Assembly: GCA_049968235.1 (NCBI GenBank)
Contig: JBMFRC010000016.1
Coordinates: 1 to 63,086, forward strand
Length of the DNA: 63,086 bases
Direction of reading: 5' to 3'
Source: Candidatus Hydrogenedens sp.
GTDB taxonomy: Bacteria > Hydrogenedentota > Hydrogenedentia > Hydrogenedentales > Hydrogenedentaceae
Shown here: in pieces, positions 9,467 through 20,695 of the stretch
Position numbering within the stretch: position 1 is the first letter of the stretch
Layout of the letters: the number at the start of each line of letters is the position of its first letter
Translations under genes and position numbers: made by a program
The notes under the pieces: generated by a model
The model's input: only the letters and a program-made list of their open reading frames with translations
What the model was told of the DNA's origin: nothing
Databases searched by the model: none

Positions 9467-10720
9467 ATGTTAAAACAAAAATCTTTATTAATGCTGTTGC
9501 TCGTAGGTTTGGTCGTTGGGCTGAGTGCTCCCAGTTTTGCAGTTCAACCACCACCTAACCCAAGTGAACTTGACTTCTGTGCTTTGTTAGATGGTGCCTA
9601 TAACCTCGTTACAAATGAATTTGCATTCTTGTTAGAGTTATTAGGTGATGACGCCGCATTATTAACAACGGTGCAATGTTCTGTTTGTGATATCAATGGC
9701 GGAATTGTAGATAACCGGCCGACACCCAACGGAATGCTGGATGGAAATTATGAACTCCGTATCATCAAAGAATTGATTCAGAATCCAACTCAGTATGCTA
9801 GCTTGGCTTCGGGAACATTACCTGGACAAATTAAGCAGGGTGTGAATCCCACCGATGTGATTAATGCATACAACGCAAACTATCAGATGTTATATACCGA
9901 TGGAATGAATACATTCTTAAATGCAACATTACCTGCCTTATGGCCCATCTTACAACAAATGTATCCAAATGTTGTTCCTCCATTATGTACAGCTCCCAAT
10001 ACACCTCCGGGTTGTATTGATAAGTCTCTTATCGTAACATTATTCCGTAATTTGTTAATGGTTCTTGCCGGTTTTGCAACAGAAGGTGATGATGCCAGTG
10101 CTGGGAGTGTTGCTACCGTTGCAGGTTTATTGGCGTTATGCGATGTGTTAAGTCAGGGTTCTTGTCTTGTAAATGATATTGTAACTGACCCAAATGCTTA
10201 TGAGAGATTACCTGAATTTTTATCCAAAGATGGTGATGCGGATGGTGACGGTTATACCAACTATGCAGAATACCAGGCATTTGCTAATGTGAAAGGTCCG
10301 GGTGATGCATTTATCGCCGCAGTATTGGACCCGTCGGTTTATCCGGGATATGTACCTCCTGCGGGAGACAAAGTAAATATTTATCCGAGTGGAACAATTA
10401 AAGTAGAAGAAGGCGGAACTATCGACTTGAGAGTAGAAGTAAAAAATATGGTCGGAACTGTAGGTTATCAATGGACCCATAATGGCGAAGACCTCGGAGT
10501 TACTCAACCACGTTTGATAATTCGGAATGTGACCAATGCAGATGCGGGGAATTATCAATGTGTAGTTACGGATGAAGCCAAAGGTACCTATGCATCATCA
10601 GTAGTTGTTGTTCAAATACTTCCCGAAGGGACAATTCCTGTCGCAGGCGGTCTCGGTCTTGCAGTAATTACAGCACTTTGCTCCGCAGGTGGTGTAATGG
10701 TTATTCGTCGCAGAAAGTAA
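9467..10720 (+). CDS. Secreted protein with an N-terminal signal peptide, a C-terminal Ig-like domain and a PEP-CTERM-like membrane-anchor tail
   Basis: GGGAGGAG ribosome-binding site at 9452-9459. Signal peptide MLKQKSLLMLLLVGLVVGLSAPSFA. Ig-like stretch GNYQCVVTDEAKGTYASSVVVV. The tail is LPEGTIPVAGGLGLAVITALCSAGGVMVIRRRK. Confidence 0.7.
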   Translation: MLKQKSLLMLLLVGLVVGLSAPSFAVQPPPNPSELDFCALLDGAYNLVTNEFAFLLELLGDDAALLTTVQCSVCDINGGIVDNRPTPNGMLDGNYELRIIKELIQNPTQYASLASGTLPGQIKQGVNPTDVINAYNANYQMLYTDGMNTFLNATLPALWPILQQMYPNVVPPLCTAPNTPPGCIDKSLIVTLFRNLLMVLAGFATEGDDASAGSVATVAGLLALCDVLSQGSCLVNDIVTDPNAYERLPEFLSKDGDADGDGYTNYAEYQAFANVKGPGDAFIAAVLDPSVYPGYVPPAGDKVNIYPSGTIKVEEGGTIDLRVEVKNMVGTVGYQWTHNGEDLGVTQPRLIIRNVTNADAGNYQCVVTDEAKGTYASSVVVVQILPEGTIPVAGGLGLAVITALCSAGGVMVIRRRK

Positions 10721-10760
10721 TTGAAGCGTCAAAATAATTTTGAATAACAAAAAATTATAA

Positions 10761-10794
10761 GGGAATCTCGTAGGAGGTTCCCTTTTGTTTTTTA
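10761..10794 (+). terminator. Rho-independent terminator
   Basis: Hairpin GGGAATCTC-GTAG-GAGGTTCCC followed by TTTTGTTTTTT, 40 nt after the stop codon of the 9467..10720 gene. Confidence 0.7.
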
Positions 10795-11672
10795 TTAAGA
10801 ATAAATGAGACTTCTGAACAAGTGGTATAAGAAGTTATGGTATAAATTATACATGTTTTTACGAGACAAAATCCCTATGAGAAATTAAAATACAAAAGTC
10901 TGTATCTTTACTTTTGCCCATTTTATTTGTTATTTTCTGTGCGTTTTGCCGTCTTCTTATTACCTATGCATATCTCACCTCTTACTTCCTTAATTCCCCA
11001 TATATCTGCTTCAAATTATATACAGTCTTTAGCAGGAAATGATATGTTCCTTTCTCTTTACCTCTCCTTGCCCTCCGTGGTGAAAAAAATATAAGCAACC
11101 ACAGGAAAATCATCACTCACTGCTCAACAGTGCTTAAAATAGTAAGGTAGGAAACATCCGCTCTCCCCAGGTTGCTTTATATAATCCTCTCTATACTCAC
11201 CTATGCTTAAATTCCTTCCATAGTATCATCTCTTGTACCTATCTCAAAAAAACATCTACATCGAGTCGGCTTCCGATGTGTCATTTCGTAATTTGTAAAA
11301 CTTGTTTGTTCTATCTCTTTTACCATACTGCATGGACCTTTCTTCATTTTTAGTTTTTCCTTGTTTTGTTATTCGACCCGAAATACTTCTGCTCTATTTA
11401 TATTATTTCTTTCTCTTCTCGTTTCATTTGTTATTACCACCTTCCCGTATATAATTCATATCATCTAATTCGGATGACTTATTCAGAGGTCTCATATATT
11501 AAAAGATGAACAAATTGTTTTTGTTTGTGGAACCACATTTTCCTAAATTAGAAGGTATAAGCAAGATATTTGTGTAACCAGATAATTATTCCTTTCATAA
11601 TTATCCCGTCAATTAGTGCGGTGGTAAAGAAGCATAGGAAAATATTTTTTGCAGGTAAATCAGAAATTAAAT

Positions 11673-11700
11673 TTGACAACGGACTGTTAATTTATATATA
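11673..11700 (+). promoter_or_regulatory. Candidate sigma-70 promoter of the csoR-like operon
   Basis: TTGACA at 11673-11678, a 16-nt spacer, then TATATA at 11695-11700, about 45 nt upstream of the ATG at 11745. Confidence 0.5.
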
Positions 11701-11703
11701 CTA

Positions 11704-11720
11704 ATACATAGTATATGTAT
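11704..11720 (+). promoter_or_regulatory. Candidate operator: inverted repeat ATACATA-gta-TATGTAT next to the -10 element
   Basis: The 7-bp arms are exact reverse complements. The outer ATAC...GTAT ends resemble the ends of described CsoR-family operators, though the core here is AT-rich. Confidence 0.35.
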
Positions 11721-11744
11721 ATTATCCGATTAAGGAGAAATATT

Positions 11745-12026
11745 ATGCAAAAAGAAGAAGAAAAGAAGAAAAAAATTGTTGAACGACTTAATCGAATTGA
11801 AGGGCAAATTCGAGGACTTCGTGTGATGATAGAAAAAGAAAAGCCCTGTTTTGATGTTTTAAAGCAGGTTTCTGCAGTTCGTGGAGCCCTTCGTTCTTTA
11901 GGCCAGGTCATTTTACAGCAACATCTCAATGAGTGCCTATTATCTTTTGGTGAAAATGAAGAAAAGATAAAAGAATTTAAAGATAACCTTGTTCACTTGT
12001 TTTCAAAAATTTGTTCCAGTGAATAA
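11745..12026 (+). CDS. CsoR/RcnR-family (DUF156) metal/persulfide-sensing transcriptional repressor; CstR-like by context
   Basis: AAGGAG at 11732-11737, 7 nt before the ATG at 11745. I prefer this start to the ORF-track start at 11715. The IERLNRIEGQIRGL helix is the CsoR signature. Cys (KPCFD) and His-x3-Cys (HLNEC) fill the W-X-Y-Z sensing positions. Confidence 0.85.
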   Translation: MQKEEEKKKKIVERLNRIEGQIRGLRVMIEKEKPCFDVLKQVSAVRGALRSLGQVILQQHLNECLLSFGENEEKIKEFKDNLVHLFSKICSSE

Positions 12027-12053
12027 AAATTAACAATATAAGGAGATATATCC

Positions 12054-14498
12054 ATGATAAAGAAACGAGTTATTATTGTAGGCGGTGTAGCCGGTGGAAT
12101 GAGTTGTGCTACACGTCTAAAAAGGTTAAATGACAGCCTGGAAGTAATTGTATTTGAAAAAGGGGGTGATGTCGCCTATGCTAATTGTGGGATGCCTTAT
12201 CATATAGGGGGCATTATTTCTGACCGTTCTCTGCTTTTAGTTCAAACTGAAAAAGGTTTACAGGGCAGGTATGGATTGGATGTTCGCACACATCATGAGG
12301 TTATTGCAGTTAACCGTGAAAAGAAAGAAGTCTCTGTCCGTAATTTAACTAATAATACAGTTTTAACTTTTCCATACGATGTTCTTGTTTTAGCAACGGG
12401 TTCTATTCCCTTAGTTCCCCCGATACCGGGTGTGGATAGTCCAAAAGTTTTTGTCTTAAATCATCTAAGTGATATGGATAAGATTATGAATATATTACCT
12501 GAAAGTAAACATGTCAGTGTTATTGGTGCTGGTTTTATTGGTCTGGAATTAGCGGAAAATTTAAGACACCGCGGTTTAGAGGTGTCCCTTATTGAAATGC
12601 AGGACCATGTAATGCCGCGTATGGATACAGAAATGACAATTCCTATATTACAAGAACTTTTATTTAACAAAGTGAATGTATATTTACAGGAAACAGCCCA
12701 GAAAATTGAAGATGGTCGTGTTTATCTTAAAAGTGGTAAGACAGTGAATAGCGATTTTGTGTGTTTGTGTGCAGGGGTTAGACCTAATACTCAATTAGCG
12801 AAAGAGGCAGGTCTGGAACTTTCCCAAACAGGACATATTCGTGTAAATGAATATATGCAGACGAACGACCCGGATATTTATGCGGTTGGTGATGTTGTAG
12901 AAGTAGCGGATATTGTTACGGGAGGTAGAACTGCGGTTCCCTTAGCCGGACCTGCAAACCGACAGGGTCGTGTTTGTGCAGACCATATTTGTGGGAGAAA
13001 TACCCCGTTTGGTGGTATTCAAGGGACGGGAATTGTCAAAGTATTCAATATTGCTGTTGCACAAACAGGCATTACAGAAGCCCAGGCAAAGGCAATGTCT
13101 CTTACCTATCGGAGAGCCTACATACACCCCATGCAACATCCCCGTTACTATCCGGGTGCACAGCCGGTAAGTGTAAAAATAATATTCAATAACGAAGGGA
13201 ATATATTGGGAGCACAGGTAGTAGGTTCTGAAGGGGTTGAAAGCATGATAAATACTTTAGCCATGGCAATTCGCCACCGCAAAACGGTTTATGATTTGGA
13301 AGATGAGGAACTTGCATATTCTCCACAATGGGGCGGAGCTAAACATGGTATTAATATGGTGGGATATGTAGCGTCAAATATACTGCGAGGAGATGTAGAG
13401 ATTGCAGAACCGGATAATATTCCATCCGGTGCCTACATTTTAGATGTGCGTGAACCTGCAGAAGCAGAAGCGGGTGCTATTCCTGATGCTACCCTTATAC
13501 CTGTTGACCAGTTACGAAGCCGGGTGTCTGAAATCCCGCGGGATAGGGTTATAGTTATCTATTGTGCAGTAGGTTTAAGAGGTTATATCGCATACCGATT
13601 TTTGAAACAACAAGGGTTTCAGGTATTGAATTTAAATGGAGGTTTCCGCTCATGGTCGTGGTTCCATAAGAAACCTACTGTAATTACACCACCCCCTACA
13701 ACAGGTATTCCCCTATCCGAAACAGCACCAGCGGATGACTCTGTGGTTGTTCCGGAGAAACACCGTCTTGATGTCTCCGGTATGCAGTGTCCCGGACCTA
13801 TTATGAAAGTAAAAGAGGTAATGGAAAAACTTCAACCGGGCGATTTATTGGAGGTATATACGACGGATGTTGGTTTTACTTGTGATGTTCCTGCATGGTG
13901 TTCTAAAACCGGGAACCGTGTATTACAGGTCCGTCCTGAAGGAAAAGGCTATCTCGTAGAGATAGTAAAAGGAGAGGCGACGCCAGAGGCCTCATCCGAA
14001 ATTGTGCCTTCCTGTAAATCCCCTGATAAAAAAGCGGTAACGATTATTTGTTTTTCCAATGATTTAGACCGTGTTATGGCAGGATTTGTAATTGCCAATG
14101 GTGCAGTCGCTATGGGATACAAAACGACGATTTTCTTTACCTTCTGGGGATTAAATGTTCTTCGTAAGGAAATGAAAGTGCGAGTAAAGAAGGGATTTTT
14201 AGAAAAGATGTTCGGTCTTATGATGCCCCGAGGAGTAAATAAACTGAAATTATCTAAAATGAACATGGGTGGAATGGGTACCCAAATGATGAAGTATGTA
14301 ATGAAGATTAAAAATGTTATGTCCTTACCGGAACTGATGAAAACCGCTATTGATTCAGGTGTACAATTCGTTGCTTGTTCCATGTCTATGGATGTGATGG
14401 GAATCAAAAAAGAGGAATTAATCGATAATGTTGAAGTAGGTGGTGTGGGCTACTATTTAGGAGAGGCTGGGAATGCAACTATCAATTTGTTTGTTTAA
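12054..14498 (+). CDS. Four-domain fusion: CoA-disulfide/persulfide reductase (pyridine nucleotide-disulfide oxidoreductase), rhodanese, TusA and DsrE/DsrF-like
   Basis: FAD motif VIIVGGVAGG. CoADR single-Cys motif YANCGMPYH. A second Rossmann fold VSVIGAGFIGLE. Rhodanese active site VIYCAVGLRG (aa ~500). TusA CPxP motif MQCPGPIMKVKE (aa ~590). The C-terminal ~140 aa look like DsrE/TusD (FVACSMSM). AAGGAG ribosome-binding site upstream. Confidence 0.85.
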   Translation: MIKKRVIIVGGVAGGMSCATRLKRLNDSLEVIVFEKGGDVAYANCGMPYHIGGIISDRSLLLVQTEKGLQGRYGLDVRTHHEVIAVNREKKEVSVRNLTNNTVLTFPYDVLVLATGSIPLVPPIPGVDSPKVFVLNHLSDMDKIMNILPESKHVSVIGAGFIGLELAENLRHRGLEVSLIEMQDHVMPRMDTEMTIPILQELLFNKVNVYLQETAQKIEDGRVYLKSGKTVNSDFVCLCAGVRPNTQLAKEAGLELSQTGHIRVNEYMQTNDPDIYAVGDVVEVADIVTGGRTAVPLAGPANRQGRVCADHICGRNTPFGGIQGTGIVKVFNIAVAQTGITEAQAKAMSLTYRRAYIHPMQHPRYYPGAQPVSVKIIFNNEGNILGAQVVGSEGVESMINTLAMAIRHRKTVYDLEDEELAYSPQWGGAKHGINMVGYVASNILRGDVEIAEPDNIPSGAYILDVREPAEAEAGAIPDATLIPVDQLRSRVSEIPRDRVIVIYCAVGLRGYIAYRFLKQQGFQVLNLNGGFRSWSWFHKKPTVITPPPTTGIPLSETAPADDSVVVPEKHRLDVSGMQCPGPIMKVKEVMEKLQPGDLLEVYTTDVGFTCDVPAWCSKTGNRVLQVRPEGKGYLVEIVKGEATPEASSEIVPSCKSPDKKAVTIICFSNDLDRVMAGFVIANGAVAMGYKTTIFFTFWGLNVLRKEMKVRVKKGFLEKMFGLMMPRGVNKLKLSKMNMGGMGTQMMKYVMKIKNVMSLPELMKTAIDSGVQFVACSMSMDVMGIKKEELIDNVEVGGVGYYLGEAGNATINLFV

Positions 14499-14525
14499 TT
14501 CGTATGTTATAAAATACAATCTACG

Positions 14526-15293
14526 ATGGATGCATTTGAATTAAAAAGAAAATTACTAGAGAAAATACATTATTGCAAGCCCAGAAGGTATGCTATTATA
14601 TACTGTCATGTTCTCTGGCGGGAAATAGCCTATTATTCTTCTATTTCTCCGCATGTTTACGATTATTTCTTTTTAGAACAGGGTTTGCATGATGCCCCTC
14701 AGTGTCTTCATGAACGACTGCAACAAAAAATAGATGAGATAGACACCTTAAAATACGATGCTATTTTAATAGGTTATGGCTTGTGCAGTAATGGAACCTT
14801 ACATATCACATCGAAACATACACCATTAGTTTTTGTAAAAGCCCACGATTGTATAACCTTCTTTCTAGGGAGCCGTGAACGGTATCGAGAATGTTTTAAT
14901 CAATTTCCAGGTATTTATTGGTTTACTCCCGGCTGGATTGAAGACAGTGTTATGCCCGGTCCGGATAGAGAAAAGGCAATTCGTGAATTATTGTCTGAAA
15001 TCTATGGAGATGAGAATCGGGATTATCTGATAGAATCGCTGGAAACCTGGAAGAAGAAATATCGCTGTGTAGGTTACATAGATTTGGGTGTCGGAAACCG
15101 TGAATTAGCCAAAGAATATACCCGACTTTCAGCCCAGTATTTAGGCTGGGAATATTATGAATTTCGAGGAGACCCTATATTATTAATTCGCTGGTTATTA
15201 GGGGAATGGGAATATTCGGATGATTTTATTATTCTACCTCCGGGGAAAAAATTAAAACCAACCTTTGATGATGAAATCGCTACAGTAGAATAA
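14526..15293 (+). CDS. Cys-rich hypothetical protein, apparently co-transcribed with the CoADR fusion
   Basis: Only a 27-nt gap after the upstream gene. 255 aa with several Cys residues (HYCKPRR, IIYCHV, GYGLCSNG, AHDCITF). No motif I can name with confidence. Confidence 0.55.
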   Translation: MDAFELKRKLLEKIHYCKPRRYAIIYCHVLWREIAYYSSISPHVYDYFFLEQGLHDAPQCLHERLQQKIDEIDTLKYDAILIGYGLCSNGTLHITSKHTPLVFVKAHDCITFFLGSRERYRECFNQFPGIYWFTPGWIEDSVMPGPDREKAIRELLSEIYGDENRDYLIESLETWKKKYRCVGYIDLGVGNRELAKEYTRLSAQYLGWEYYEFRGDPILLIRWLLGEWEYSDDFIILPPGKKLKPTFDDEIATVE

Positions 15294-15306
15294 AAAAACC
15301 TGGTTT

Positions 15307-16086
15307 TTGACATTTGTAAATATGTCTCCAACATCCCATCTAAAAAAAGGTAAGGTATATATAGGGACCAGTGGTTGGAGTTATCCTCATTGGGCAAAAG
15401 GAACTTTTTACCCCAAATCTGTGCCTACACAAAACTGGTTACAATACTATGCCTCTATTTTCAATGGAGTTGAAGTGAATTCTACATTCTATAGATTACC
15501 CAATCTATCTCTATTGCAAAAATGGAACAATGTTACCCCTCCCAATTTTACTTTTTCCATAAAAATATGGCGTCGAATATCCCACGATTTGCGATTGCGA
15601 AATGTCCAGAAGGAAATACAGGACTTTTATCAGTCTGTTTTACCTTTACAAGAAAAAACAAAAGTATTTTTATTACAGGCACCCCCTTCTTTTGTACCGG
15701 ATGTAAGTTTGCTCAATGAGTTTTTCTCTACATGGCAGGAAGTATTCAAGAGGAATCTTTTAGCAGTAGAACTACGAAATAAAAAGGGGTTTAGTGAAGA
15801 AGTCTTTGATGCGATGAGGAAATATAATGTTTCTTTATGTCTGGAAGATTATAAAAGTTGTAGTATTGATGATGTAACTACAGCAGATTGGCTTTATATC
15901 CGCAGACATGGACCTACAGGTAAATATCAAGGAGAATACACACAACAACAATTAAAAATAGAAGCAGAAAAAATAACGCGTTATATTACCTCTGGAAGAG
16001 ATGTTTTTATCTTTTTTAATAATGATTTCAATGCATATGCTCCTAAAAACGCACTGCAATTGATGTGTTTACTACAGGGTACATAA
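15307..16086 (+). CDS. DUF72 (UPF0759) family protein
   Basis: IGTSGWSYPHW...FYP...YF..VEVNSTFY is the hallmark N-terminus of DUF72 proteins. It sits 13 nt after the upstream gene. Confidence 0.8.
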   Translation: MTFVNMSPTSHLKKGKVYIGTSGWSYPHWAKGTFYPKSVPTQNWLQYYASIFNGVEVNSTFYRLPNLSLLQKWNNVTPPNFTFSIKIWRRISHDLRLRNVQKEIQDFYQSVLPLQEKTKVFLLQAPPSFVPDVSLLNEFFSTWQEVFKRNLLAVELRNKKGFSEEVFDAMRKYNVSLCLEDYKSCSIDDVTTADWLYIRRHGPTGKYQGEYTQQQLKIEAEKITRYITSGRDVFIFFNNDFNAYAPKNALQLMCLLQGT

Positions 16087-16119
16087 AAAGAGAGCATGAA
16101 AAATACATACTCTCTTTTT
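16085..16119. terminator. Bidirectional intrinsic terminator between convergent genes
   Basis: A 12-bp stem AAAGAGAGCATG / CATACTCTCTTT (one mismatch) with a 7-nt loop, flanked by an A-tract on the 5' side and a T-tract on the 3' side. It lies between the DUF72 stop (16086) and the stop of the 16140..17384 gene. Confidence 0.5.
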
Positions 16120-16139
16120 AGTAGTATCTAAATTTTAAT

Positions 16140-17384
16140 TTATCCTTCGCGGATTTCACGTTTTTCAGGGTCATAAATCTGCCGTTTACCTGTGTCATAA
16201 GCAATCATTGCCATGATACAAGCAACTGCATGTTGATAACCTGCATCTATACTTGCGTTGGGTTCATTTCCATTACGCATACATTGCAACCAATCCAAAA
16301 TATGGTCTGGATGTTCCACAGGTTCAATTTCCACTTTTTCCTTCAAAGCATCTGTTTTTGTAAAAGCACCATCAGGCAATAATATGGGATTGTTCCAATC
16401 CTGAAGGTCCATCAAGCCTTGATTCCCAAAAATCTTAAACGAATTACCCGCACCATTACCAAAATTTGTAGAATAGGAGACCATAAATCCTTCGGGATAT
16501 GTCCATAACACTTGAATATGGTCGGGACAGGTAAAATTGTATTTATCTTTCCATGTGTAAATGCCACCAGAACAAACAGCTGTCTTAGGGAATTTTGCAC
16601 CTGTGATATAATGTACAAGGTCGATGAAATGACTACCCCAACCGGGTATCGCTCCATCTGAAAATTCACGATACCCATACCATGCTGAACAGAATACGGG
16701 GTCAAAAGGTTTATCCGTTACACCCGAAGTAAATTCCTTCCAGTTCACATCTTCCGGTTTTAAGTCTTCACGAATATGCCGATACCAATAGGGGCGAGAA
16801 TCATTTCGACACTGTTCTACCCGACCCACAGTGCCAAGAATACCCGATTTATAAACTTCTTTCGCTCCGGTAAAACTGGGATAACTTCGTAATTGTGTTC
16901 CTATCTGGACAACAACCTTGTTTTCCTTTACCGCATCATAAGCAGAAATAAGTTCTTTCATATTCTTTGCTAATGGTTTTTCGCAATAAACATGTTTCTT
17001 TGCTCTGGCGGATGCTTCAAGATGTAAGCAATGCACATGGTCAGCCGAAGCAATTACTACCGCATCTACTTCCGCCTTTGACAGTAGGTCCTGATACGAC
17101 TCGAATTGTTGGGGGTCTTTGCCATATACATCTTTTACCATCTGAGCCATTTGTTCCCGGTTCCCTTTCCATGGGTCACAAACAGCGATAATATCTACAT
17201 TTTCTCTTTGACGATATGCACTGATTTGTTCAAAATGATTACGCGACCTACCTCCACAACCTATCATGCCGATAGCAATACGGTCATTGGCACCCGCGAT
17301 GCGAGAATAACTTAATGCGGAAAGAGTTACAGCAGTTCCAATCCCTGCTGTTTTAAGAAAATCACGACGCGTTTTTGGTTTCAT
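16140..17384 (-). CDS. Tat-exported Gfo/Idh/MocA-family NAD(P)-dependent oxidoreductase, copy 1
   Basis: Twin-arginine signal MKPKTRRDFLKTAGIGTAVTLSALSYSRIAGA, then a Rossmann motif IGMIGCGGRS. The Gfo/Idh/MocA pattern runs throughout. Confidence 0.85.
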   Translation of the reverse strand: MKPKTRRDFLKTAGIGTAVTLSALSYSRIAGANDRIAIGMIGCGGRSRNHFEQISAYRQRENVDIIAVCDPWKGNREQMAQMVKDVYGKDPQQFESYQDLLSKAEVDAVVIASADHVHCLHLEASARAKKHVYCEKPLAKNMKELISAYDAVKENKVVVQIGTQLRSYPSFTGAKEVYKSGILGTVGRVEQCRNDSRPYWYRHIREDLKPEDVNWKEFTSGVTDKPFDPVFCSAWYGYREFSDGAIPGWGSHFIDLVHYITGAKFPKTAVCSGGIYTWKDKYNFTCPDHIQVLWTYPEGFMVSYSTNFGNGAGNSFKIFGNQGLMDLQDWNNPILLPDGAFTKTDALKEKVEIEPVEHPDHILDWLQCMRNGNEPNASIDAGYQHAVACIMAMIAYDTGKRQIYDPEKREIREG

Positions 17385-17405: not shown

Positions 17406-18650
17406 TTAACCTTCCTGAATTACTCGTTTAGTATGGTCATAAATCTGTCGTTTACCTGTATCATAAGCAATCATTGCCATAATACATGCTACCGCATGTT
17501 GGTAACCCGCGTCAATATTTGCATTTGGTTCATTCCCGTTACGCATGCATTGTAACCAATCTAAAATATGGTCAGGACGCTCTATGGGTTCAATTTCTTT
17601 CTTTTCTTTTAGTGCGTCTGTTTTTGTAAATGCACCATCAGGAAGTAAAACAGGATTATTCCAATCCTGTAAGTCCATCAATCCCTGATTTCCAAAAATC
17701 TTAAAAGAATTGCCAGCACCGTTCCCAAAGTTAGTGGAATAAGACACCATAAATCCTTCCGGATATTTCCATAGCACCTGAATATGGTCAGGGCAGGAGA
17801 AATTATATTCATCTTTCCATGTATAGATATCGCCTGAACAAACCGCACTTTCCGGAAATTGGGCGCCGGTAATGTAGTGCACCAAATCTATAAAATGACT
17901 TCCCCATTGAGGGATAGGTCCATCTGAAAAATCACGGTAACCATACCATGCGGAACATAGAACCGGATTAAACGGTTTATCTGTTACACCGGCTGTAAAT
18001 TCCTTCCAGTTAACATCTGCCGGATTTAAGTCAGTTACGATTTTCGAATACCAATACGGTTTATTCCCATTTCTACATTGTTCTACCCGACTTACTTTTC
18101 CGAGAATACCCGATTTATATGACTCGCGAGCACCTGTAAAACTGGGATAACTCCGCAATTGTGTCCCAATTTGAACTATAACTTTATTATCTTTAACCGC
18201 ATCATAAGCAGAGATAAGTTCTTTCATATGGTTCGCTAATGGCTTCTCACAGTAAGCGTGTTTCTTCATCTTTGCAGTTGCTTCTAATTGGCGAGCATGC
18301 ACATGGTCTGCGGAAGCAATTACTACCGCATCCACTTTCGCCTTTGACAGGAGGTCCTGATACGACTCAAATTGTTGTGGGTCTTTGCCATATACATCTT
18401 TTACCATTTTCGCCATTTTTTCTCGTTTCTCTTTCCACGGGTCGCAAACGGCAATAATTTCTACATTTTCTTTATCTTTATAGGCGCTGATTTGTTTAAA
18501 ATGGTCATGAGACCTACCTCCACAACCTATCATACCGATAGTAATCCGGTCATTCGCTCCTGCAATTCGTGAATAAGTTAATGCAGATAAGGTAACTGCT
18601 GTGCTTAAAGATGCAGTCTTTAGAAATTCTCTACGCGTTTTCTCTTTCAT
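17406..18650 (-). CDS. Tat-exported Gfo/Idh/MocA-family oxidoreductase, copy 2 (tandem paralog)
   Basis: About 85% identical in protein to copy 1. I prefer the start at MKEKTRREFLKT (18650) by analogy with the paralog. The ORF-track start is 18668. Confidence 0.85.
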   Translation of the reverse strand: MKEKTRREFLKTASLSTAVTLSALTYSRIAGANDRITIGMIGCGGRSHDHFKQISAYKDKENVEIIAVCDPWKEKREKMAKMVKDVYGKDPQQFESYQDLLSKAKVDAVVIASADHVHARQLEATAKMKKHAYCEKPLANHMKELISAYDAVKDNKVIVQIGTQLRSYPSFTGARESYKSGILGKVSRVEQCRNGNKPYWYSKIVTDLNPADVNWKEFTAGVTDKPFNPVLCSAWYGYRDFSDGPIPQWGSHFIDLVHYITGAQFPESAVCSGDIYTWKDEYNFSCPDHIQVLWKYPEGFMVSYSTNFGNGAGNSFKIFGNQGLMDLQDWNNPVLLPDGAFTKTDALKEKKEIEPIERPDHILDWLQCMRNGNEPNANIDAGYQHAVACIMAMIAYDTGKRQIYDHTKRVIQEG

Positions 18651-18949
18651 AAAATTTTCTCCAATCACAATATTAGTTATTTACAATGATTATGTTCCAA
18701 AAACTATTTCATACATTACTACATTATTTTCTATTGTTTCAAAATGTATTTTTTGTCCCTCACTCTCGAACCAATCTACTGGATAAAAATTTTTTATGCC
18801 AACAAACTTTTTAAGTAAGGAGGGATGCTTATGCTACATTTGATATAATAGAGCAAAAGAATGTCTTTACTACAAAATGACATTTTGTTTTATATTTTTC
18901 ATGTAATGCAAATATGTCTATGGAGATAATTATTAGAAAAGTCCATATA

Positions 18950-20695
18950 TTACTTTTCCCCCCCTATTTGCTGTAAAACTTCTTTATCCCAATGAAGTGG
19001 AATAGAATCTTTCTGAAGCATTTGTTGAAATTGTTCCAACAAATTGGAATTGTTTCTAACCTGACGGGGTAGAAGATTATTTTGTTTACAAAATGATAGA
19101 AGGCAACCGACTGCTTCTCCAATATGCCATTCAACCTGATGAAGACGATATGCTCCGTTGGTAATATGTGTAGTTCCTATATTTTTTGCAACAGGTAGCA
19201 TGTTTTCAATTCGTTTGGGTATTAAGGCTCCTAAAGGTATCTGGAAAGGTAACGAATCTACATCGAAATAATTTTTACCATTGGTTCGTGGGTGTAGGTC
19301 AATACGATAATAACCAATACCCACAGTATCTTTGAAAAATTCGGGGGTGATATAATCCTGTGTTTTAAACATTTCTTTTCGGGCATCTTTCCCAATGTGT
19401 TGTTCACATATTGTAAATTCCGCTTTAATTCGTCTTGCTTCACGGATATAGGGTCTCATGGCGAACCCATCTTCTGTTCCGGTAACATCGGGACGTAGTC
19501 GCAAACCTTTCCATCCTGTTCCACCATCGGGACGGGCTACTTCGGTTTGTAACCAATAAAAGAGGGCAAGACTTAATTCTTTGGCTTTTCTTTCATGATA
19601 TAAATCTTCTTCTTTCGTTTTGTTTTCAATAATATTTCCCAAAAAATAATCATTTTGAGGCCAATTGACAATCGTTATGCTGTAAGGAATAATGTTTGTG
19701 TCAAAAATATTCCTATCCAAAATTTGACGGTAATTCCACCAACTTGCTTTAGTCTGTCCTGTCGGGTCAAATGGCATGGTACGGAGTTGTAAAGTTACAG
19801 GATGTGTTGCTGTTAGGCTTAATAAAGGACCTGTCCATGGGGGGGCTAACTTAGGAATGAATGAACGCCAAAAATCATAATTTTTAGGTTTGTTAATTTG
19901 GTGGTTTCCCTCCGGTTCATAATCCATAGCAAAACACCATGTGCATGCCTGCATCGCATGAGGGTTAGATTTCGTAGAAGCATGAGGTTCTCCAGTCTCT
20001 TTTTGCGACTCCATACCGGTAACATATTCTACTTTCCCTAAAGGGAGCAATTCTCCTGTTTCCGTAGCATCGATAAAATAAGGAGCGGAAAGCCAAATAT
20101 CGTTCCCTGTTTCTAAGGAAGAAACCTTAACAGCGGAGAAATAATCATTATTTGTTTCTACCAATACAGGGATGTGTTTCTTTAATACAACAAGTTTTTT
20201 CCCTGATATGTAAGGAGAAAGAAGAGTTTCAATTACCTGTGCACTAACACGAGGTTCATGGCAGATTCGTGAAACATTCCCATTTCCGGGGTTTAATTTG
20301 GGATTATTTTTGTGTTCTTCAAGTAAGGGATAATTCTTACGGTAAAAATCACGAATTGCATTTCGGAACTGTTTATATCTTTCTGTAGAACCTTTATCTT
20401 CCACCCATGGGTTTTCATCTGGCGGAACAGCCTGCGAAGTCATCTGTCCTCCCAGCCATAAAGTTTCCTCTGTAATGATTACGGATAATCCATGTTGCAA
20501 TGCAGATAAGGCACATGCCACTCCTCCTACACCACCACCAATTATGACCACATCTGCTTTTATTAGTTCCATTTTCCTCTGTTTCTTATTAAAAATTTTT
20601 TCCGAATTACGAGGTTTAATGGCACTACTTTTTGAAGAGGATACATATAAAATAGGGGATGTTCCTAACGCTAATAAGAAATTTCTACGTTTCAT
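18950..20695 (-). CDS. FAD-dependent oxidoreductase (FAD_oxidored family) with an N-terminal Tat-like signal
   Basis: MKRRNFLLALGTS, then DVVIIGGGVGGVACALSALQHGLSVIITEE (a GxGxxG FAD fold). Confidence 0.75.
   Translation of the reverse strand: MKRRNFLLALGTSPILYVSSSKSSAIKPRNSEKIFNKKQRKMELIKADVVIIGGGVGGVACALSALQHGLSVIITEETLWLGGQMTSQAVPPDENPWVEDKGSTERYKQFRNAIRDFYRKNYPLLEEHKNNPKLNPGNGNVSRICHEPRVSAQVIETLLSPYISGKKLVVLKKHIPVLVETNNDYFSAVKVSSLETGNDIWLSAPYFIDATETGELLPLGKVEYVTGMESQKETGEPHASTKSNPHAMQACTWCFAMDYEPEGNHQINKPKNYDFWRSFIPKLAPPWTGPLLSLTATHPVTLQLRTMPFDPTGQTKASWWNYRQILDRNIFDTNIIPYSITIVNWPQNDYFLGNIIENKTKEEDLYHERKAKELSLALFYWLQTEVARPDGGTGWKGLRLRPDVTGTEDGFAMRPYIREARRIKAEFTICEQHIGKDARKEMFKTQDYITPEFFKDTVGIGYYRIDLHPRTNGKNYFDVDSLPFQIPLGALIPKRIENMLPVAKNIGTTHITNGAYRLHQVEWHIGEAVGCLLSFCKQNNLLPRQVRNNSNLLEQFQQMLQKDSIPLHWDKEVLQQIGGEK

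Follow-up and report, generated by a model that had tools for sequence, protein, structure and literature searches.

Which signal does a small repressor of the CsoR family answer to when the gene directly behind it encodes a sulfur-handling flavoenzyme, and how far does the unit under its control extend? These questions are raised by a 63,086-nucleotide stretch of DNA from Candidatus Hydrogenedens sp. (the complete contig JBMFRC010000016.1 of the metagenome-assembled genome GCA_049968235.1; the whole stretch is called the window here), in which the gene for a 93-residue regulator of the CsoR family (PF02583; 11745-12026, plus strand) is followed on the same strand by the gene for an 814-residue fusion protein (12054-14498). 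The latter joins a CoA-disulfide reductase (CoADR)-type module to a rhodanese, a TusA, and a DsrE-like domain. With a probability of roughly 0.5, we take these two genes to form a self-repressed module, induced by reactive sulfur or thiol stress, whose enzyme is an NAD(P)H-dependent CoA-persulfide or polysulfide reductase.

The four-domain make-up of the fusion protein, first proposed from the letters alone, without database searches (hereafter, the sequence-only reading), was confirmed by Pfam, including the assignment of the C-terminal ~350 residues to rhodanese, TusA, and DsrE. Residues 1-445 (12054-13388, plus strand, like all modules of the protein) constitute a CoA-disulfide-reductase-type FAD/NAD(P)H module (Pyr_redox_2, 6.5e-61, followed by Pyr_redox_dim) with two Rossmann motifs of the FAD and NAD(P)H type (GGVAGG, residues 10-15, and GAGFIG, residues 158-163) and a single redox cysteine, Cys45 (AYANCG). 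The rhodanese (residues 459-535; 13428-13658; PF00581, 1.9e-13) contains the active-site loop C504-A-V-G-L-R, the TusA module (residues 571-638; 13764-13967; PF01206, 2.5e-21) the motif C579-P-G-P together with Cys616, and the DsrE/DsrF/DrsH-like module (DrsE_2; residues 659-813; 14028-14492; PF13686, 2.7e-61) Cys775. In an alignment with 21 homologues, 48-79% identical, both Rossmann motifs and C45, C504, C579, P580, G581, P582, C616, and C775 were all invariant.

Two known architectures are combined in this chain. The N-terminal part has the hallmarks of a CoADR-rhodanese (Rossmann motifs, a single cysteine in an SxANCG-type site, and, towards the C-terminus, a rhodanese whose loop has the form CxxGxR), and residues 4-536 aligned end-to-end with BaCoADR-RHD of Bacillus anthracis (3ICR; E 1e-149), Shewanella Npsr (3NTA; 1e-147), and the CoA-persulfide reductase (CoAPR) of Enterococcus faecalis (8A56; 6e-140), both catalytic cysteines, Cys45 of the ANCG site and C504 of the rhodanese, being in register with all three. 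Enzymes of the CoAPR type differ in that they end after the rhodanese, and CoAPR is accompanied by the separate rhodaneses RhdA/B. The C-terminal 260 residues were matched in the PDB by TusA (3LVJ; 8e-9) and by a "putative sulfurtransferase DsrE" (3PNX; 1.6e-29; Cys aligned), while no solved full-length four-domain structure was among the PDB matches. The order rhodanese-TusA-DsrE, with CxxGxR, CPxP, and the DsrE cysteine all present within residues 459-813, is that of CstA from Staphylococcus aureus, which Higgins et al. in 2015 reportedly described as a rhodanese-TusA-DsrE protein; the likeness of the C-terminal 360 residues to CstA is one of domain order and of one cysteine per domain. CstA, however, has no reductase and partners the oxidative CstB and SQR, whereas the relay of the window protein shares its chain with an NAD(P)H reductase. 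A CoADR-RHD-type reductase joined to a CstA-type relay, as the sequence-only reading had it, is therefore what domains and alignments indicate, but this combination is not new.

A scan with one genome per species yielded at least 588 related stretches, of which 80 near-full-length loci were kept (match from query residue 1-25 to 814, or to 802 in one). At least 80 species thus have the complete four-domain fusion in their genomes, the 80 loci spanning Bacillota, Planctomycetota, Myxococcota, Verrucomicrobiota, Omnitrophota, Spirochaetota, Bacteroidota, and Chloroflexota. Likewise, of the 120 best database homologues, whose sources include Hydrogenedentes, Planctomycetota, Armatimonadota, and Clostridia, 118 share the Pfam set and two are partial sequences; the window protein conforms to the common pattern of one chain of ~800-840 residues with conserved domain order and a cysteine in each module. 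Two members have been described. Pcar_0429 of Pelobacter carbinolicus has the same four-domain architecture, and for it a persulfide relay from rhodanese via TusA to DsrE, with NADH/FAD-driven release of sulfide, was proposed (Aklujkar et al. 2012; PMC3543383), which is the relay that the sequence-only reading arrived at; Pcar_0429 was regarded as a respiratory S0 reductase, though, and an adjacent CsoR-type regulator was not reported there. BF638R_0572 of Bacteroides fragilis comprises CoA-disulfide reductase, rhodanese, TusA, and DsrE/DsrF/DrsH in the same order and is encoded in a small autoregulated operon with the MarR-type repressor BmoR, whose target is an inverted repeat within its own promoter; the operon was derepressed 50-fold in a bmoR mutant, and loss of BF638R_0572 increased the sensitivity to diamide (Teixeira et al. 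2018; PMC6158253). The arrangement resembles that of the window except that the repressor is of the MarR type there and of the CsoR type here; the window fusion is ~43-44% identical to homologues from Bacteroides/Bacteroidales (loci L049 and L083). Hence, the idea that two architectures had been newly joined here does not hold: earlier publications cover the fusion, the relay mechanism, and the control by a small adjacent repressor, which makes the locus one more, unremarkable member of a known sulfur/thiol-stress module.

What travels with the fusion gene delimits the unit. A PF02583 gene lies directly upstream in six of eight Hydrogenedentes-type fusion loci (92% to 54% identity) and is lacking in the other two; all other flanking genes differ among these loci, and the regulator-fusion pair recurs in further metagenome loci. 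Conservation of the pair while the other flanks differ supports a two-gene unit. As in the window, the regulator directly precedes the fusion gene in 21 further loci, and a CsoR-family repressor upstream of its target is also found in cst-like operons (PMC8643695). In one Hydrogenedentes relative, a gene for an acyl-CoA-binding protein (ACBP; L087:7537-7824; 2.5e-29) follows the pair in place of the DUF1638 gene found in the window (see below), a small hint at a connection to CoA.

Among the 80 distant loci, other repressors take the place of the CsoR-type one. The commonest neighbour, present in 23 of the 80, is a small ArsR-type regulator (HTH_5) that contains three conserved cysteines and whose gene, in 18 cases, directly precedes that of the fusion in the same orientation. 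It usually precedes the fusion in Bacillota, where its cysteine motifs read HPVRLC..., G.CNV, and MQ.CL; genome loci with this pair include L008, L012, L015, L017, L037, L045, L051, L054, L068, L074, and L075. To judge from sequence, these three-Cys proteins look like an uncharacterised class of thiol-based sensors dedicated to the fusion enzyme. A CsoR-family gene was present in four of the 80 loci. The linkage of a CsoR-type repressor with the fusion, from which the sequence-only reading had started, reaches far past the close relatives (the six of eight Hydrogenedentes-type loci and the further metagenome loci). In three Paenibacillus genomes, the CsoR-family gene lies immediately downstream of the fusion and encodes an x-C-N-C protein; the best PDB match of the Paenibacillus fusion-adjacent regulator is SpCstR of Streptococcus pneumoniae (7MQ1; 1.5e-16). 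The family of the repressor next to the fusion has been swapped several times. As the repressor families differ and the fusion is constant, the recurring unit is a small Cys-containing repressor plus the fusion, and the association of the latter with several Cys-bearing repressors (ArsR-type, CstR-like, and the MarR-type BmoR) supports a signal of the thiol type.

Self-repression is suggested by the region in front of the regulator gene. A predicted sigma-70-type promoter (11673-11702, plus strand) consists of a -35 box TTGACA (11673-11678) and a -10 box TATACT (11697-11702) separated by an 18-nt spacer, and it is the best consensus match in 11400-16400 (11 of 12 positions). The TATACT box stands in the same register in seven of seven aligned orthologous promoters, and a -35 of the TTGACA type is visible in some of them. 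A candidate operator of 21 bp (11699-11719; TAC-TAA-TAC-ATA-GTA-TAT-GTA) with the pattern TAC-N3-TAC-N3-GTA-N3-GTA extends over part of the -10 box and the presumed start of transcription, a position that fits repression by promoter occlusion. Its core is the 7-3-7 palindrome at 11704-11720 (inverted repeat I6), which the sequence-only reading had singled out and which proved to be a real inverted repeat conserved in orthologous promoters. The 63-kb window has a single copy of the pattern, with zero expected from shuffles; it was found in seven of seven aligned Hydrogenedentes promoters despite unrelated flanks, and it precedes 13 of 18 distinct fusion-adjacent regulator genes. CsoR/InrS operators, too, have TAC/GTA half-sites in outer and inner positions, the consensus of TTHA1953 from Thermus thermophilus being TACN2TACN4GTAN2GTA (PMC10318464), unlike which the half-sites in the window are spaced N3-N3-N3.

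These elements suggest the following course of events. The CsoR-family repressor would bind the 21-bp operator, which is defined by its conservation, over the -10 box and silence its own promoter. Reactive sulfur species or related thiol oxidants would then modify the pair formed by C35 and C64', as in CstR-type sensors, upon which the modified repressor would leave the DNA and transcription would start. In the enzyme, Cys504 of the rhodanese would pick up sulfane sulfur, by analogy with the chemistry of BaCoADR-RHD, Npsr, EfCoAPR, and CstA, and Cys579 of TusA and Cys775 of DsrE may buffer or relay it. The sulfur would be delivered, probably on bound CoA, to Cys45 and FAD, where NAD(P)H would reduce it to H2S; for CoAPR, a swinging-pantetheine mechanism and persulfidation of the rhodanese cysteine in vivo have been reported (PMC9405070). 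The two genes downstream in the window are probably read through in the Hydrogenedens lineage, outside the conserved mechanism.

Two groups of findings weigh against this reading, the first of which concerns the enzyme. CoA-disulfide reductase models are the best NCBIfam matches of the fusion, but all stay below their curated cutoffs (TIGR03385, 455.8 bits versus 578.8; NF007123, 362.8 versus 458; NF010037, 346 versus 394), which makes the protein a relative, not an equivalog, of plain CoADR. Furthermore, no enzymological study of any four-domain member was found in the literature, only the two genome and genetics papers cited above, and because no assay of such an enzyme was found, the roles given to TusA and DsrE within the fusion are inferred. 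A paper on a polysulfide reductase from Thermotoga deals with another enzyme, and reviews of selenoproteins in which CoADR and DsrE are mentioned proved irrelevant.

The ranking of the NCBIfam models would also suit a module for general CoA thiol/disulfide homeostasis, in which the enzyme acts mainly on CoA disulfide or on mixed disulfides of CoA with proteins and the regulator senses disulfide or oxidative stress via C35 and C64. The diamide sensitivity of the BF638R_0572 deletion mutant, which led its authors to propose a CoASH-based redox buffer (PMC6158253), points the same way, as does TTHA1953, a CsoR-family regulator with two cysteines whose DNA binding is strongest in the fully reduced state (PMC10318464). 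Yet characterised CoADR-rhodanese enzymes prefer persulfide substrates (PMC9405070), the scores fall short of every equivalog cutoff, and three additional sulfur-transfer domains with invariant cysteines would be superfluous for disulfide reduction, which together render this explanation quite improbable.

A different use of the same chemistry is suggested by the distribution of the fusion, which is found mainly in Clostridia, Bacteroidales, Planctomycetota, Omnitrophota, and Spirochaetes, lineages known as anaerobes. Rather than for detoxification, the enzyme could serve as a catabolic, cytoplasmic S0/polysulfide reductase, that is, as a polysulfide-induced electron sink in a fermentative or syntrophic organism. 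The same role and relay were proposed for Pcar_0429 (PMC3543383), and Npsr, second to BaCoADR-RHD among the closest solved relatives, reduces per- and polysulfides with NADH. An autoregulated repressor with a single soluble enzyme and no membrane or energy-coupling partners nearby looks more like a stress module, however, and the phenotype in B. fragilis is sensitivity to a thiol oxidant (PMC6158253). As the chemistry is identical, this explanation is inseparable by sequence from a detoxifying reductase; we consider it unlikely.

The second group of findings concerns the regulator and the nature of its signal. Its start codon, ATG 11745, lies 3' of an AAGGAG ribosome-binding site and sets the numbering of C35, H60, and C64. 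The protein matched PF02583 (Trns_repr_metal) over residues 8-81 with 92.3 bits (cutoff 22.8; 2.5e-26), and C35, H60, and C64 are invariant in seven orthologues, 34-84% identical, so that the sequence-only reading was right in assigning a CsoR-family regulator with an intact triad, that is, an x-C-H-C ligand set of the Cu(I) type. Its "CstR-like" label fared less well. The CstR signature, derived from clusters 3, 4, and 10 of a sequence similarity network (Fakhoury et al.; PMC8643695), is x-C-x-C without His at position Y and with an Asn "wedge" in Sp/SaCstR, and the CstR that controls CoAPR in Enterococcus faecalis and Streptococcus is likewise x-C-x-C with Asn at the His position; because the window regulator keeps His60 there, it is not a CstR by motif. 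Its best PDB relatives are InrS (1e-17) and Geobacillus CsoR (4e-16), with SpCstR (7MQ1; 2e-10) seven orders of magnitude weaker than InrS. With the Cu(I)-CsoRs of Bacillus subtilis, Geobacillus (4M1P), and Streptomyces lividans (4ADZ) and with the Ni-sensing InrS (5FMN), it shares both the fold family and the C-H-C ligands, and its name at NCBI is "metal-sensitive transcriptional regulator". The identical regulator is also encoded in GCA_049969095.1 and GCA_049971155.1.

The nearest relatives outside the fusion context, as found in a metagenome scan with the regulator alignment, are 42-49% identical and adjoin CPx P-type ATPases; these account for a further difficulty for the "CstR-like" label. 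The operator of these ATPase-linked relatives, TACATATACACCCTATATGTA, is nearly identical to the fusion-linked one. Across their clade (loci L100, L104-L106, L114-L125, L131-L134, and L139, the ATPases being short, with 626-672 residues), it reads TACATATAC-NNN-CTATATGTA, almost equal to that of the fusion-linked regulators. Relatives classed as "other" (L107, L118, L129, and L143) are on incomplete contigs or next to unrelated genes and were uninformative.

Taken at face value, these relationships describe a genuine Cu(I)-sensing CsoR, with copper stress as the inducer of the enzyme, which could regenerate CoASH after copper-catalysed thiol oxidation or provide sulfide that precipitates copper. 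The His is also retained in 13 of 13 distinct Hydrogenedentes-type regulators, which argues for selection on this residue, and in Glu77 the second-shell Glu of Geobacillus/B. subtilis CsoR has its aligned counterpart. Among 17 distinct fusion-adjacent regulators, though, three have Asn and one has Arg in place of the His, which is kept by all 22 distinct ATPase-adjacent relatives; the position is thus dispensable among fusion-adjacent regulators. Variants with Arg for His (…RVHHC) are encoded at L128:4932-5264 and L143:1386-1667, the copy in L128 directly upstream of a fusion gene.

Further evidence speaks against copper. The 63-kb window encodes neither a P-type ATPase with DKTGT nor a GMxCxxC protein, and neither copA nor copZ was found within two genes of the fusion-adjacent regulator in any of 22 loci, although such neighbours mark copper sensors in the genome neighbourhood network of PMC8643695; this supports sulfur over copper. 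A Ni-exporter gene is missing from the neighbourhood as well, which sets the locus apart from CsoR and InrS systems. Fusion-linked regulators are devoid of the N-terminal MALCGE/DDH extension of the ATPase-linked ones, a Cys/His motif that possibly supplies extra ligands, and the window regulator lacks the N-terminal His/Cys "W" ligand. A neighbour-joining tree (60 columns, unbootstrapped) places the fusion-linked C-H-C regulators in groups free of ATPase-linked members, and regulators of the thiol type, not of the copper type, govern the same enzyme in other phyla. In the CsoRs of M. tuberculosis and B. subtilis, a second-shell Tyr before Cys X and a Glu couple Cu(I) binding to DNA release. 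The window regulator carries Pro34 before Cys35, as InrS does, and not the Tyr of classical Cu-CsoRs, which would count against copper; yet the ATPase-linked relatives also lack the Tyr (having Asp, Asn, or Ser instead), so that this residue does not discriminate in this branch of the family and was rejected as a copper-sensor marker.

The caution of the sequence-only reading in choosing between copper and persulfide was therefore justified, the C-H-C triad being kept and the evidence pointing both ways. Weighed against Cu(I), a signal from thiols or reactive sulfur comes out ahead by roughly 2:1, and a copper sensor is a minority possibility to be taken seriously. A more speculative and rather doubtful variant is that the Hydrogenedentes regulators are a separate CsoR branch that was recruited to a persulfide/polysulfide reductase with its Cu(I) triad kept. 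They would then be either persulfide sensors with a new role for His60, standing naturally between CsoR and CstR, or dual sensors through which copper and reactive-sulfur stress lead to sulfide release, and the DUF1638 gene may have been placed under this control so that corrinoids are protected, or repaired, when sulfide or persulfide damages them.

How far the unit extends in the 3' direction is a separate matter. Behind the fusion gene lie a gene for a 255-residue protein (14526-15293, plus strand) and one for a DUF72 protein (15307-16086, plus strand; PF01904, 203.4 bits versus a cutoff of 25.3, 6e-60), and the open reading frame (ORF) coordinates bore out the four-gene, same-strand layout with gaps of 27, 27, and 13 nt. 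Gene and length of the "Cys-rich" 255-residue protein stood, its identity being corrected to that of a DUF1638 protein (PF07796, 127.9 bits versus a cutoff of 27, 4.3e-37). The last gap is 13 nt for the ORF as called, but 28 nt with the likelier start of the DUF72 gene, ATG 15322, which is more probable because homologues begin at the equivalent Met (MSSK.../MSP...). No plus-strand terminator-like site was seen between the four genes, nor was a strong promoter match seen between the fusion and DUF1638 genes; a convergent gene at 16140 bounds the operon at its 3' end. In the Hydrogenedens lineage, DUF1638 and DUF72 are thus probably read through from the regulator promoter, to judge by this arrangement.

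Tight spacing on one strand could mean that all four genes serve one pathway, with DUF1638 and DUF72 as new partners in persulfide detoxification, as the sequence-only reading had suggested. In every locus with a fusion at least ~75% identical, DUF1638 is indeed found directly downstream (10-28 nt), even where the other flanks have changed, and the protein contains an invariant set of Cys and His residues (C27, H28, H55, C87, H107, and C109). However, it occurs 3' of the fusion only at ~75% identity or more; both genes are absent from Hydrogenedentes loci with a fusion no more than 66% identical, and neither was a neighbour of the fusion in any of the 80 distant loci. The DUF72 gene is 3' of the fusion only at ~79% identity or more and always together with the downstream Gfo/Idh/MocA pair, which is ordinary local synteny, and locus L085 has kept DUF1638 and is without DUF72. 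DUF1638 homologues with 45-51% identity are solitary or, in one KSB1 contig, part of an uptake operon: there (L173:2830-8490), a homologue with 47% identity lies between genes for a TonB-dependent receptor and Peripla_BP_2/ABC/FecCD components, which looks like a BtuB/BtuFCD-type operon and fits the genetic link between DUF1638 and cobalamin. Genetics and proteomics have linked DUF1638 to the RamA-type reactivation of cobalamin, a corrinoid (PMC5764234, PMC12478193), and DUF72 has been predicted to be a DNA-repair endonuclease (PMC3828134, PMC4939058). With ties of their own elsewhere and a presence confined to the closest relatives of the fusion, the two do not qualify as new partners; a four-gene pathway is very unlikely, and DUF1638 and DUF72 are probably co-transcribed passengers outside the conserved mechanism.

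The surroundings of the operon can be described briefly. Downstream on the minus strand are two tandem paralogues of Gfo/Idh/MocA oxidoreductases (16140-17384 and 17406-18668), 84% identical to each other and both with a twin-arginine-type N-terminus (TRRDFLKTAG...); the pair is kept downstream of the operon in the close relatives L001 and L084. It is followed by the gene for a 581-residue FAD_oxidored protein (18950-20695, minus strand; PF12831, 1.7e-90) with a signal-like N-terminal segment, apparently unrelated to the operon. On the other side, the ~950 bp 5' of the promoter (10721-11672) contain no ORF of at least 60 codons on either strand and no Rfam or tRNA match (Rfam and tRNA scans of the whole window had no matches either), and the equivalent spacer in relative L001 is only ~260 bp long. 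Beyond it, a secreted 417-residue protein is encoded (9467-10720, plus strand) with an Ig-like domain near its C-terminus, which ends in a hydrophobic stretch and RRRK, resembling a sorting or anchor signal.

For annotation, it follows that the conserved unit is a small Cys-containing repressor plus the fusion, and that this locus offers no ground for calling DUF1638 or DUF72 sulfur genes. The four-domain enzyme is common in anaerobes of many phyla, and its mutant has a phenotype in B. fragilis; as it is widespread and no biochemical characterisation was found in the literature, enzymological work on it would be worthwhile, an argument to which the copy in the window adds nothing special. Of specialist interest is the regulator, a C-H-C protein of the CsoR type whose conserved target is a sulfur enzyme; this target and the nearly equal operator of its ATPase-linked cousins make it a clean natural test case for copper versus persulfide specificity. 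Hydrogenedentes are anaerobes, and for an anaerobe, the module would offer a reductive, oxygen-independent way of removing persulfides and polysulfides, as an alternative to the oxygen- or quinone-dependent route via CstB and SQR.

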